Shown: positions 10,168 through 57,607, counted from the whole stretch's first letter. The stretch: DNA of 62,586 nucleotides, filler included, from Rhabdomonas costata (GCA_019059605.1; 37 parts of 37 records of this genome joined end to end with filler, not necessarily neighbours in it); one strand, 5' to 3'. Program-made: numbers and translations. Notes: generated by a model not told the origin, from the sequence alone.

Positions 10168-11762
10168 GTGTTTTTGATATGATCCATAAATCCATAATAT
10201 TATTACTATTAAATTGAGTTTGTAATGTTTTATTTTGTTTTATAAAATGTGTATAATGATCTTTAAAAAATTTTATACAATTACACCATTGAATTAATTT
10301 TTCTTTTACAATGTTTACATGATCTGTATTAAATTTAACATTTTCTCCTTTTACTGCACCAGAACTTAATAAATATAATCGAACAGAATCTGCACCGTAT
10401 TCATTAATTACATCCATAGGATCTTTAAAATTATCTAATCGTTTTGACATTTTTTTACCATCTTTTGCCAAAATTAATCCAGCACATAATACATTTTTAT
10501 AAGCTGGTTTATTAAAAAGTGCAGTTGAAATAATCATTTGTGTATAAAACCATCCTCTACATTGATCAATTCCTTCTGCTATAAAATCAGATAAATATTC
10601 TAATGAATTTATTAATTTTTCATTTTCAAATGGATAATGTAATGATGCGATAGGAACACTTCCTGATTCAAACCATGTATCAAGTGTAAATTTAACGTTC
10701 TTTAATATTTTATTATTTTTTATAATCTGTATGTCATATATATTTTCAGGATGTAGATCATATAATGGTTTCTTTAAATCTGCTAAAATAACAAGTTCCT
10801 GTATAGATCCAACACATACAATTTCAGTTTCATCATCAGATACCCAGATAGGAATAGGTGTTCCAAAATATCGAGTTCTTGATATATTCCAATCTCTAGC
10901 TTCTGCTAACCAATTATAAAATCTATGTTTACCGATATGTTCAGGTACCCAATTGACTTTATTATTATTATTTATTAATTTTTGTTTAAATTCGTCATCT
11001 ATTTTTACAAAAAAACCATTTTGTGCTCTGTATATTAATAAGTTATTTGATCTTGGGCAGATTTTACAAGTATGAGAAATTTGTTTTACTTTGAAAATTT
11101 TATCTCCTAAATCATTAATAATATTTTTATTAGCATTAAAAATATGTTGACCATAATAAGACGTTATAATATTTGTATATTTGCCGGAATCATCTATTGG
11201 ATTTAATTCTTTCATAGTTTTTATATTTACTAATTTATTTTTTATACAAACATCAAAATCAATTTCACCATGAAATGGACTTAAATGAACGATACCTGTA
11301 CCATCTTGACCAACAAATGAATCTGTAATTATTTTATATTTTCTATTAAAAAAGTTAAAAACTGCTTCATATTCAGAATCTTTCAAATATTCACCCTTAA
11401 ATGTGTCTATGATTGTATAATTTTCAAGTTCTTTTGTATAATGTGTATTAATGATAAAATAATTATTATTGATTTTTATAAGATTATATAGTTCAGTAGG
11501 ATGAACACATAATGCAATATGTGAAGGTAAAGTCCACGGTGTAGTTGTCCATGCTATAATATATATATTATCTATATGATTAAATAAATTTGTAATAAGT
11601 TTAAATTTAACATAAATTGATTTTTCTGTAATAAGTTGATGTGAATCTTCAAGTTCTGATAATGACAATGTTGTTGTACATTCAGTACAGTATGGCATTA
11701 CACGAAAATTTGAATAAATTAAATCTTTTTTCCACATTTCTTTAAATATCCACCACACAAAC
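10168..11762 (-). CDS. ileS: Isoleucyl-tRNA synthetase, eukaryote/archaeal type (IleRS2), partial at both ends; non-host, probably giant-virus origin
   Basis: One uninterrupted frame spans the whole contig. Motifs: WTTTPWTLP, GTGIVHLSPFHGEID (editing domain), DWNISRTRYFGTPIPIW, LDTWFESGS, EGIDQCRGWFY, KMSKR and YGADSVRLYL. No introns, GC roughly 20-30% by eye, and N/I/K-rich. Confidence 0.97.
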
Positions 11763-29242: not shown

Positions 29243-30363
29243 CTAGCCGGAGGCGTTCTCCTTGCAGCCGACAACGGCCTCCTCGCCCATCGCCTGCCCA
29301 AAGGGCGTAGCAGCAAGCAAGGCAAGAACAAAGAGAGAGAGAGAGAGATGTGATGTGATGGAGGAAGCAAAGTGAAAGACTTTGCATTCCAGGGGCTCCT
29401 AACGAGAGAATGCACCACACATTCCCTTCACATCTGACGGAAATGCACCCCCAGCCCCACCACCTCCCAGGCATTAAGGGAAGGAATCAGCACCGTTTCT
29501 TCAACTCAGGACTTATGTTGGATGTTTCGAGAGAGAACTGGTACCTTCCTTCAACCCAACACTAAAACAAAATTCCCTTTTGCTTGCAATGTTTTGGTGC
29601 TCCAATAGCTGTTTTCCTTTCGTGCATTTCACACGGCAGCGTCCCAAACTTTCAGCCACCGTTAAACCCCTGCCTTCTCAACCATTAACCCAATCAACCC
29701 AATCAATACTGTTATACGCCATTCAAAGTCCTTCCCAGCTGCTGAATTTCGCCTCAGTCCCTGGGCTGAGAGTCATAGGCCAGCTCGAGGCTCTCGGTTG
29801 GCTCTCGGTTGCATTTGCTACCGAACCGGGTGGCGTTTTCTTTCAAGCACTCGGTAGAACATGCGACCATGGCCACGGTGAGCTCTGGGTGCAGGCAGCC
29901 GGATGGGTTTGGGCAATGACCTTTAAGAACAGGAAAAGGCATTCCCAGCATGAGTACGGATGAGCACGGATGATGCGCTATATGTTCGCTGCTTTGTATT
30001 TTTTACTCTCTTCTCCTGAACACATGACATGCTGTTGAAAGTTACCATGACCAGACAAAGACGATACGTGTGCGCATGTGTGGGTGGATGTTGAAGAAAT
30101 TTGGCTGCCGTTCGCAACACCCCCGCACACCTTGATGACCGAGATGGTTAGATCTTTTCCGCCGTCAAAGCCCTCGCGGATCTGCTTCCCCAGGTCTCCT
30201 GCTGGAAGGCGGACATCAGATTTCTCTGCGTTGGTGTTGTTGTCCAGCAGCACAACGAAAGGAGGGTCGTCGGTGGTGATGTCCATCAGAGAATACTCCG
30301 TGCGCACCACGTTGGGGACGTCAATGTTGTGCGAGGTGGGGCACAGCTCTTCCAGCTTCTTGC
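29243..30363 (-). CDS. eIF5A: Translation factor eIF5A, last two exons
   Basis: Exon 30363-30131 reads KKLEELCPTSHNIDVPNVVRTEYSLMDI...DVRLP...DLTISVIK. Exon 29293-29243 reads AMGEEAVVGCKENASG*. The GT-AG intron is 837 nt. Confidence 0.96.
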
Positions 30364-31198
30364 CTGAGGGAGCAGAGGAACGGTTGAAAAATTGAGCCCC
30401 ACCACCCNNNNNNNNNNNNNNNNNNNNNNNNNNNNNNNNNNNNNNNNNNNNTTAATTAATTAANNNNNNNNNNNNNNNNNNNNNNNNNNNNNNNNNNNNN
30501 NNNNNNNTTTGTTGTTGCAACCCTCGGAGTTGAATCATGTTGTGCTTCGTCGGTTTCAATTCACAATGGCCTGTTCTAATGCCCTGAAATCTGGAAGGGG
30601 GGCTCAAAAAAATGCCATTTCAACTTGCAAGCGACGATCTAGCCCGAGTTTTTTTCTTCTGCGTCTTCGTAGATTCCTGATACGTCACCTGTCAATGGTC
30701 TGTTCCTCCAAATTTGTGCTCCAAATGTTCAGACTGTACTACTCTCTTTTAGAATCTCTTTACCCTTTTTTTTTCACAACGCTTGCAAGCATGGGTATGG
30801 GTGTGATCGTTGCCCTTCCGAAACTCCTGGGACGCCGCCCCGCTGTTTCACTGCCTCACGCCCCTCCCCGTGGCCTTTTGATGATTATTCGGGTCTTCAG
30901 CAGATGAACGGAGACTTACCTCATTCCTCATCTTTTGACCGTCTCTGCGACAACTCATGGAAAATCGTATGGGAAAGGGGGGCGGCGATACATGCAGGGC
31001 ATACAGTGGCACCGCTTGGGCGCTTGGGCGATGCCATTCGGTTCAATGTTCTCTAGGAGTTTACCAGTAAAGTGATATATGTCTGTAATATTCAATACCC
31101 AATACCGACATCGCGCTACAGATACCTTGCGTGGAACTGTGAGAAGTCTCAGGCAATCCTCCAGTCTTCTGAATTTCATTGTTGTGTGCTGCCTGCAG

Positions 31199-55595: not shown

Positions 55596-57010
55596 GTGCT
55601 TGCTTTCCCTTCGAAGCTCTCTTCCTCCTTCCCTCGACCCACTTCTGTGAAGTTTCGGGATACTGTTTACACTTGCGGTAGCGATGCTTGTCGATCAGCC
55701 CTTCAACACCGCCACCTTGTTATTTAGCGCGGGAGAAAAGGGGTTGCGCAGATCACTTCTTTGTCAAAGCCCGCTTGAATACATCCAGCAGGGTACGACG
55801 AACATCATTACCAGNNNNNNNNNNNNNNNNNNNNNNNNNNNNNNNNNNNNNNNNNNNNTTAATTAATTAANNNNNNNNNNNNNNNNNNNNNNNNNNNNNN
55901 NNNNNNNNNNNNNNGTGGTTGTGGTACGCCAGCAGGTTCTATGCGCTAAACGATGTGAACATGTAGCTAATGCACTCACATGTGGCTAGATTGTCACAAC
56001 TACATAGAGCGTTACTCAATAACGACTGATTTGGATGTTCTGAAAGAGCGTATTTACATTTTCAAGATATTAGTTTGACCTTGACATCGTCGATAACTTC
56101 CATTGGCCAATTGTGTCAAAACGTATACGCGTGGATGCATCGATCTGAAAATGTGTATTACTGCTCTAATTGATCTCAGTTTGCGTGAGTCTCCAGTTTA
56201 TTGACACAAAATACAGTGTTTTGCGATTTAATTCAATGGATATGTTTAGCTTCTCTTCATAATTGGACACACGGACACGGATTTAATTTAGCCAGAGCAA
56301 ACGTCATACGCTAGCTTTTTGACACTTTTAGTTGTTGTTGATGCGCCCCAGCGCACGCTCCACATAGTGAACCATTTCCACTTGAGACTAAAGTATGAAG
56401 CACCAGTGGATCAAGTGGATTAATCTCTTATAAAAACCAGTATATTGGTAAACAATTTAATGCAAGGGACACTGTTCAGTCTTTACATATTCCATCCGCA
56501 ATTGAGCAAATTGTTATGGCTGAATGTGCGTCAGAGAACCTCAGGGACTACACTGTATCATCTGCTAATCGAGTCCACCATTTACTAGATGTTTCTCTCT
56601 CATTTGGAAGCAGAATTTGGTCTTTAAATGGGCTTGCTTGTGTCTACAAAAACGCAGTAATAGAATAGGTAATTACGTTACGACACGTTTGAATAACTAA
56701 CCTTCTAGTGGTGAAATGTGTGGCTTACATGATTGGTTCATATTATAGCTAATCCCCCCACATTATGATGCCCAAACAGTGGATTTATGGGTAAATGTTT
56801 TCACAAAGATTACGCTGACCACCAAATCTTAGAAAATAACACAAGTGGGTGACAATTTCTTTTTGATTCCGGTGAGCATGTTGCTGCGATGCTTTTCTGG
56901 CTACTTATATTTAGTATTTTTGATGTATTATCTTTGGCTTTTAACAAAAAAGTAACAATTTAGCATTGTTTTCCCAAATAGATGGTTTTTAATCAATTAA
57001 AGTCTATAGT

Positions 57011-57050
57011 TTTAGTTTAGTTTAGTTTAGTTTAGTTTAGTTTAGTTTAG
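57011..57050. repeat. (TTTAG)8 microsatellite
   Basis: Eight perfect pentamers followed by degenerate units. Confidence 0.95.
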
Positions 57051-57607
57051 GTTTGTTTAGGTTAGTTTAAAGATCCAGAAAAACAAGCACCAAAAGGGCA
57101 TTTATAAGCGCTTTTAAGCACAGCAATGGATACGCTGGAAGTGTCCGGCAGACAAAAAGACGTGCGCCTTTAACGGAGCAACGGCCATTGAGATGCCTCA
57201 GATACGGGATCCAGACACCAAACAGTTTTCTGTGCCGTGGTATGACATAAATGAGCTCCAGCATATAGCCGCTTAAACAATTTTCAAACACCAATCCGAA
57301 AATATTGTGAAGATGCCCGCTTTTTTGTATGGGAATACGTTGTTGAAGTCATGGATAATTTAAACTAGGCTAGTGAGATGGCTCGGTTTCCAGAACCGCG
57401 TACTTGGCTCAGGGCCCGGTTTACTGATACTAACTTACTTACTTTACAAAATACTTTCCTGATTAGGTGGAAATTAAGTCGAAACTCCATCTCTTTCCCA
57501 ACCAACANNNNNNNNNNNNNNNNNNNNNNNNNNNNNNNNNNNNNNNNNNNNTTAATTAATTAANNNNNNNNNNNNNNNNNNNNNNNNNNNNNNNNNNNNN
57601 NNNNNNN

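Follow-up and report, generated by a model that had tools for sequence, protein, structure and literature searches.

A probable giant-virus isoleucyl-tRNA synthetase gene fragment recovered with a single protist cell

The window analysed here, meaning the whole stretch of 62,586 bases, contains at positions 10168-11762 an AT-rich contig that likely represents a piece of an isoleucyl-tRNA synthetase (IleRS) gene from a giant virus (Nucleocytoviricota), which would have accompanied a single protist cell at the time of amplification; that cell was probably a phagotrophic euglenid. Comparison with known proteins supports giant-virus genes, and not those of bacteria or of the sampled eukaryotes, as the nearest identifiable kin of the fragment, and we infer a viral source rather than a cell with a virus-like gene. 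IleRS is already a familiar gene of giant viruses; the present fragment is a divergent one, belonging to a subclade known only from metagenomes and found with a probable phagotrophic euglenid.

The contig and the enzyme it encodes

The window is made up of 37 separate contigs, each 1590-1596 bp long, which are joined by runs of N and the linker TTAATTAATTAA. Exactly one of the 37 is of the AT-rich type; GC content is 48-60% in 35 of the other 36 and 38.7% in the last. Four features define the AT-rich contig:

10168..11762, no strand assigned: AT-rich stand-alone contig of 1595 bp and 24.3% GC, with N runs and the TTAATTAATTAA linker on both sides
10169..11761, minus strand: 531-codon open frame truncated on either side, an internal IleRS fragment
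10168..10176, plus strand: 9-nt run of G and T only at the 5' end of the contig, primer-like, as in most contigs
11750..11762, plus strand: 13-nt run of A and C only at the 3' end of the contig, primer-like and overlapping the codons of a conserved VWW

The initial annotation had given exactly these bounds, which are those of a 1595-bp contig lying between linkers, and it was likewise right about the low GC content beside richer host contigs and about the primer-like ends shared with them. Runs of this kind are frequent in the window: at least 6 nt of G and T only are found at the 5' end of 28 of the 37 contigs, and at least 6 nt of A and C only at the 3' end of 23, with a median of 10 nt in both cases. 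Such ends are presumably remnants of the G/T-rich primer of a whole-genome-amplification kit, and since the ends of the AT-rich contig resemble those of the other contigs, it went through the same amplification.

From end to end the contig is coding sequence, and no host-like sequence is present on it. The minus-strand frame has no stop in its 531 codons, in agreement with the intronless 1.6-kb frame first described, against 25-79 stops in each of the five other frames; the probability of an open frame of such length is about 4e-24 from base composition, and the GC content at third codon positions (GC3) is 10.4%. The product matches PF00133 (tRNA-synt_1) in Pfam at 6.5e-77, with 259.5 bits against a cut-off of 22.7, and in NCBIfam its top model is TIGR00392 ileS (2e-140), ahead of the valS and leuS models. 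With only model positions 156-703 of 861 covered by the fragment, the TIGR00392 score of 469.6 bits falls short of the 621.4 required of a whole protein. In the Protein Data Bank (PDB) the best match is the cytoplasmic IleRS 9w01 (7.8e-129), followed by 6ldk and 7d5c, each of which is colinear over query residues 2-529, and isolated editing domains match query residues 43-227. The fragment corresponds to approximately residues 160-700 of proteins 1050-1260 aa long. It begins where the first half of the Rossmann fold is ending, takes in the CP1 editing domain and the remainder of the catalytic core, including the KMSKS loop, and stops early in the helical region; the HIGH motif, the anticodon-binding domain PF08264 and the C-terminal domain PF19302, all of which are carried by relatives, lie past the contig ends. 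Judged from its sequence, the protein of this contig is an internal piece of a eukaryote/archaeal-type class Ia IleRS, and the eukaryote-type assignment made in the initial annotation is supported. Within the frame, the following motifs are of interest:

11531..11551, minus strand: WTTTPWT, the Thr-rich motif of the CP1 editing site, intact (T72, T73, T74, W76 and T77 invariant in 14 sequences)
10439..10453, minus strand: KMSKR, the KMSKS-type class I signature, residues 437-441, intact (K437 and K440 invariant)
11651..11668, minus strand: LSLSEL, against LSNFE or LSNSE in relatives
11048..11074, minus strand: HTCKICPRS
10538..10567, minus strand: DQCRGWFYTQ

The editing-domain motif GTGIVH is also present, in columns invariant across 14 sequences, and the fragment appears to encode a working IleRS core together with its editing site. 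Such an enzyme would activate isoleucine, load it onto tRNA-Ile and hydrolyse mis-made Val-tRNA-Ile in the CP1 editing domain. LSLSEL, HTCKICPRS and DQCRGWFYTQ had been quoted as departures from normally conserved sites. All three are present on the minus strand, and the divergence is in part private to the query, as in the TCKI stretch of HTCKICPRS, the final Q of DQCRGWFYTQ, and LSLSEL, a site at which Orpheovirus and the listed proteins P0008 and P0009 also deviate (LSASE, LSISE). The rest is typical of the clade to which the query belongs: CPRS (for CWRS) is common to the nearest relatives, with HSYPHCPRS in P0002-P0006 and HRYPFCPRS in P0007, and DQCRGWFYT is common to P0002-P0006, P0008 and P0009. 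Further, six alignment columns separate 12 virus rows from both cellular groups, and the query has the virus state at five of them and the eukaryote state at one; an example is the F of the query against the cellular W in the RYWGTP stretch.

Relationship to giant-virus enzymes

The first protein search covered proteins longer than the fragment and scored 7,998 candidates, of which the best 120 were listed. Among these the closest are the unnamed metagenome proteins P0002-P0006, at 50-54% identity, which are 1061-1108 aa long, intronless, and encoded on contigs of up to 152,939 bp. The IleRS of Mimivirus LCMiAC01 is 47% identical to the query, that of Orpheovirus 46% and that of Hyperionvirus 42%; a protein labelled as belonging to a Magnetococcales metagenome-assembled genome (MAG; P0053) has 45%, and nine named metazoans have 39-43%. 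Among partial proteins of similar length the top matches are unnamed (44-45%), with named Cryptosporidium, fungi, plants, a nematode, a sponge and others at 37-41%, and that search found no near-identical copy of the fragment. A scan of IMG/VR with a single protein yielded no relative, but an alignment-based scan did: 135 of 160 pattern matches encode relatives, with a top identity of 47% (best 80 kept). In bacterial and archaeal genomes 599 of the 600 matches listed encode relatives, the top identity being 41% (best 80 kept), and a metagenome scan gave none closer than 48% among the matches listed. The ESM Atlas returned generic IleRS fragment clusters, mostly with bacterial labels, which are uninformative on origin. 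The IleRS genes themselves have a median GC content of 30.4% in the best 80 IMG/VR loci, 37 of which are at or below 30%, and of 50.5% in the best 80 bacterial loci, none of which is.

Six of the listed IleRS homologues (P0013, P0031, P0048, P0073, P0075 and P0087) are 1400-1637 aa long and contain the intein/homing-endonuclease domains PF14890, PF14528 and PF05203; in all of these except P0013 the match to the query is broken by an insert of approximately 420-510 residues, at two different sites.

A FastTree phylogeny of 281 rows, comprising the query, the 120 listed proteins and 160 loci (duplicates P0122-P0124 left out), groups the query with P0002-P0007 and P0020 in a clade of 8 rows (support 97). 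This clade lies within a 115-row clade (99) that also holds unnamed proteins (85 rows in all), IMG/VR or named-virus rows (28) and one 'Magnetococcales' row, and the metazoans and 80 of the 81 bacterial rows fall outside it. Subset trees were computed in IQ-TREE under LG+C20+F+G4 with posterior mean site frequencies (PMSF). In a 90-row tree the 8-row clade returns at 97, and the clades around it, at 96 and 98, contain nothing but virus and unnamed rows. An 82-row tree, to which 14 eukaryotes were added (including Cryptosporidium, two plants, Tulasnella and Dimargaris, with Paradermamoeba, Sanchytrium, Amoeboradix, Pleurobrachia and Ephydatia among the additions from EukProt), recovers the 8-row clade with support 99 and, with 97, a 35-row clade made up of the query, 19 unnamed rows and 15 from IMG/VR or named viruses; the 13 bacteria form one clade (99) and the 18 eukaryotes sit within a 22-row group (90), both outside the 35-row clade. 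In a 36-row tree, a branch with a value of 100 in the Shimodaira-Hasegawa-like approximate likelihood-ratio test (SH-aLRT) separates the eukaryotes (99) and the bacteria (96) from the side of the query, which comprises 18 rows.

Alternative placements were addressed on the same 36-row set with the approximately unbiased (AU) test. Forcing the 6-row clade of the query together with 12 eukaryotes costs 121.07 log-likelihood units (p 9e-68), and forcing it together with 6 bacteria likewise costs 121.07 (p 1.4e-67). Because AT-rich genomes skew amino-acid composition, the alignment was also recoded to the six Dayhoff classes, and with the 36 rows so recoded the query stays in an 18-tip clade without any eukaryote or bacterium (SH-aLRT 99.8). 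A composition artefact as the sole cause of the placement is rejected, given that the placement survives this recoding.

Within the 8-row subclade, P0020 has a 20-residue low-complexity insert rich in K, D and E in the editing domain, just before GSGIVH, which is missing from the query and the other six members. On a long branch of the 90-row tree, the IMG/VR row L069 pairs with a bacterium.

The surroundings of the IleRS gene in several of the IMG/VR neighbours bear on what those neighbours are. The L002 contig (29.5 kb), whose IleRS is 47% identical to the query, has a capsid gene of nucleocytoplasmic large DNA virus (NCLDV) type (5.6e-40) and VLTF3 (8.1e-35) beside IleRS, together with a weak A32 match under the cut-off. 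The L017 bin, of 587.7 kb, is a giant virus bin according to IMG/VR and includes two capsid genes, with no match to VLTF3 or A32. Around the IleRS of L064 lie U-box/ankyrin, leucine-rich-repeat, helicase and AAA proteins, a set that is compatible with a giant virus and not diagnostic of one. L006 is an IMG/VR contig of 137,643 bp whose IleRS is identical to P0053, the protein from the 'Magnetococcales bacterium' MAG. Its IleRS has as neighbours replication factor C, an N-myristoyltransferase, a C2H2 zinc finger protein and a DEAD helicase, and the record gave no capsid, VLTF3 or A32 match. Given a GC content of 23% and this non-bacterial neighbour set, L006 is probably a misbinned virus or a eukaryote-derived contig and not a proteobacterium.

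Giant viruses with an IleRS of their own are well represented in print. The background statement in the initial annotation that AT-rich Mimiviridae encode IleRS agrees with the pertinent text of Deeg et al.; PMC5871332 describes IleRS as present in all Mimiviridae and the isoleucine and phenylalanine enzymes as the sole complete synthetases of Bodo saltans virus, in whose codon use A/T and the residues Lys, Asn, Ile and Leu are strongly favoured, and Table 2 of PMC6401483 lists IleS for many giant viruses. The narrower assignment of the fragment to Klosneuvirinae or Mimiviridae is not supported by this gene, and one and the same clade mixes Orpheovirus, Mimivirus LCMiAC01 and Hyperionvirus; alongside these the 35-row clade contains unclassified IMG/VR contigs, its internal order is weak, and Bodo saltans virus is not among the rows.

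With the IleRS of Nucleocytoviricota (Mimiviridae including Bodo saltans virus and Cafeteria roenbergensis virus, klosneuviruses such as Hyperionvirus, Mimivirus LCMiAC01 and Orpheovirus), the query shares the enzyme type, the lack of introns, a very high AT content and its region of the tree. However, the named viral enzymes are only 42-47% identical to it, its own 8-row subclade is known only from metagenome proteins, and about half of the gene is present in the query. The eukaryotic cytoplasmic enzymes (9w01, 6ldk, 7d5c) are colinear with query residues 2-529 and share its editing and catalytic motifs, but eukaryotic identities are 37-43%, a joint clade is rejected, and five of the six diagnostic columns have the virus state in the query. 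Similarly, bacterial type 2 IleRS has the same architecture, with a PDB match to 8c8u (Priestia) at 7.7e-91 and model matches to MupA (8.2e-96) and MupB (4.1e-85), both far under their cut-offs; in contrast to the query, the bacterial proteins form a clade of their own (99), have at most 41% identity among the matches listed, and are rejected as a joint clade with it.

The host cell and the origin of the DNA

Identification of the cell depends on the other 36 contigs. Rfam gave no match in the whole window, so that no rRNA or spliced-leader RNA is available for naming the host, and the ten longest open reading frames (ORFs) outside the IleRS contig have no Pfam match. On the other contigs 149 ORFs reach 109 aa or more, and two of them match Pfam, one as eIF-5A (1.9e-15) and one as RRM (5e-12); the first serves as a host marker:

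30122..30367, minus strand (within the ORF 29981-30406): eIF-5A exon (OB-fold domain) on another contig

In a search that needs shared 5-residue words, this ORF has 5 homologues among 30 candidates; the top one is an unnamed JGI protein (71%), and next are Dinema validum (56%) and Anisonema acinus (50%) from EukProt. The alignment with Dinema validum eIF-5A extends over 82 residues and reaches residues 67-144 of that protein. That eIF-5A aligns over 82 of approximately 155 aa, with unrelated sequence on both sides, fits an exon. The intron-dense host genes of the initial annotation could be checked only indirectly, from this exon-like match and from the low proportion of ORFs with a Pfam match (2 of 149). 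Dinema and Anisonema are phagotrophic euglenids, and with moderate confidence the host may be regarded as a euglenid on the strength of the one short eIF-5A exon, which lends some support to the earlier guess of such a host.

In the likely case that the fragment comes from a giant virus, viral DNA would have been physically with the single protist cell during DNA amplification. Because the nearest relatives of the host are phagotrophs, ingestion of virions or of infected prey, or carry-over, is somewhat more likely than infection. For a virus that is AT-rich and rich in Ile codons, an IleRS of its own could keep tRNA-Ile charged during infection, a role suggested for an Ile-rich viral proteome by the parallel with Bodo saltans virus.

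Several points weigh against a giant-virus origin or against the evidence from which it is argued. What was recovered is a single 1.6-kb gene fragment, with no hallmark gene and no flank on the contig, and the viral nature of P0002-P0007 and P0020 is argued from where they fall in the trees, how long they are and how large their contigs are. Giant-virus IleRS does not form one clade: 8 of the 25 virus rows lie on the side of the eukaryotes and bacteria when the 82-row tree is rooted at its midpoint, the IMG/VR row L074 lies inside the eukaryote group of that tree, and L077 and L080, also from IMG/VR, lie among the bacteria in the 281-row tree. On these placements, some of the IMG/VR enzymes are of another type than that of giant viruses. 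The trees are unrooted; the IleRS of Euglenozoa, ciliates, dictyostelids and Plasmodium are absent from them; the amino-acid composition of several rows, including the query, is unusual; and the rows of the subsets (90, 82 and 36) were hand-picked after the 281-row tree had been viewed. The groups forced together in the AU tests follow the initial annotation, which held that placement with bacterial endosymbionts or with an AT-rich eukaryote contaminant, coupled with a low-GC bin free of NCLDV hallmark genes, would refute a viral origin, and their membership was fixed after trees had been seen. The query stands apart from the sampled eukaryotes and bacteria (AU p about 1e-67), but the bacterial sample (the best 80 of at least 599) includes neither Rickettsiales nor Dependentiae, two of the endosymbiont groups that the annotation had in mind.

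Productive or persistent infection of the euglenid cell, in which case cell and virus would be a true pair, is rather doubtful. Consistent with infection are the co-amplification of the contig with those of the host, the shared type of ends, the intact frame and the conserved motifs; further, a 2021 review anticipates viruses of euglenids, none of them verified by then (PMC8061765). Against infection, such a contig is 1 of the 37 in the window, and Dinema and Anisonema, the nearest relatives of the host, are phagotrophs, which take up particles as well as infected prey. The virus-host association proposed in the initial annotation is at most a candidate one: the contig is all coding, with no hallmark gene or host flank. 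The more specific proposal, in which the source of the fragment is a giant virus that replicates in a phagotrophic euglenid not yet in culture, is best treated as unlikely.

A cellular source, namely an endosymbiotic bacterium or a eukaryote (prey or contaminant) that is itself AT-rich and has an IleRS of this kind, is quite improbable. Eukaryote-type IleRS is indeed widespread in bacteria, as the 599 relatives among 600 bacterial and archaeal matches listed attest, one row of the virus clade bears the label of a Magnetococcales MAG, and the nearest relatives of the query are unnamed. Yet the AU tests reject the sampled bacteria and eukaryotes alike and recoding keeps the placement, two database searches gave no named bacterium above 41% identity and no named protist above 43%, the 'Magnetococcales' contig has 23% GC and non-bacterial neighbours, and not one of the 80 bacterial IleRS genes is at or below 30% GC.

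Still less room is left for endogenised giant-virus DNA, that is, for an IleRS within a viral insertion in a chromosome of the protist, which is very unlikely. Giant endogenous viral elements do exist in Euglena gracilis (PMC12455990), and on so short a contig host flanks are possible past its ends. However, a GC content of 24% and a GC3 of 10%, against approximately 50% GC in the host, give no sign of adaptation to host composition, no host sequence is present on the contig, and the frame is intact and without erosion, whereas the Euglena elements, by the same account, are eroded and belong to Asfuvirales. Finally, a gene of the host's own is rejected, both by GC content (24% against approximately 50%) and by the AU test of the grouping with eukaryotes.

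Earlier reports and wider bearing

A 2021 review gives Bodo saltans virus as the sole DNA virus documented for Euglenozoa and infection of euglenids as unverified (PMC8061765). A 2025 paper describes eight Asfuvirales elements, integrated and eroded, in Euglena gracilis (PMC12455990), and a literature search (supplements excluded) found no paper that pairs 'phagotrophic euglenid' with 'Nucleocytoviricota'. The integrated Asfuvirales relics of Euglena gracilis (PMC12455990) are the sole euglenid link found in print. Because they were published in 2025, a link between a giant virus and a euglenid would be less new than the initial annotation had assumed. The two cases are alike in that giant-virus sequence occurs together with euglenid DNA; they differ in that the elements described in PMC12455990 are integrated, eroded and of Asfuvirales, and the query has an intact frame with mimivirus- and pithovirus-like kin.

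Most giant-virus lineages from metagenomes are without a known host, and single-cell genomes are among the few ways of proposing one. If the virus should prove to replicate in a euglenid, the IleRS subclade of P0002-P0007 and P0020 would gain its first host, and Euglenida would have its first exogenous giant virus, alongside the kinetoplastid Bodo saltans virus and the Asfuvirales relics of Euglena gracilis. Likewise, a coherent viral bin in the full assembly, if one is present, would give a useful host lead. As it stands, the fragment would be another giant-virus gene picked up together with a phagotroph, as commonly happens.

Apart from the IleRS contig, the sole other contig of lower GC content in the window is that at 55915-57507 (38.7%), which is without an ORF of at least 100 aa and has a short tandem run of the 5-nt unit GTTTA at approximately 57000-57065.

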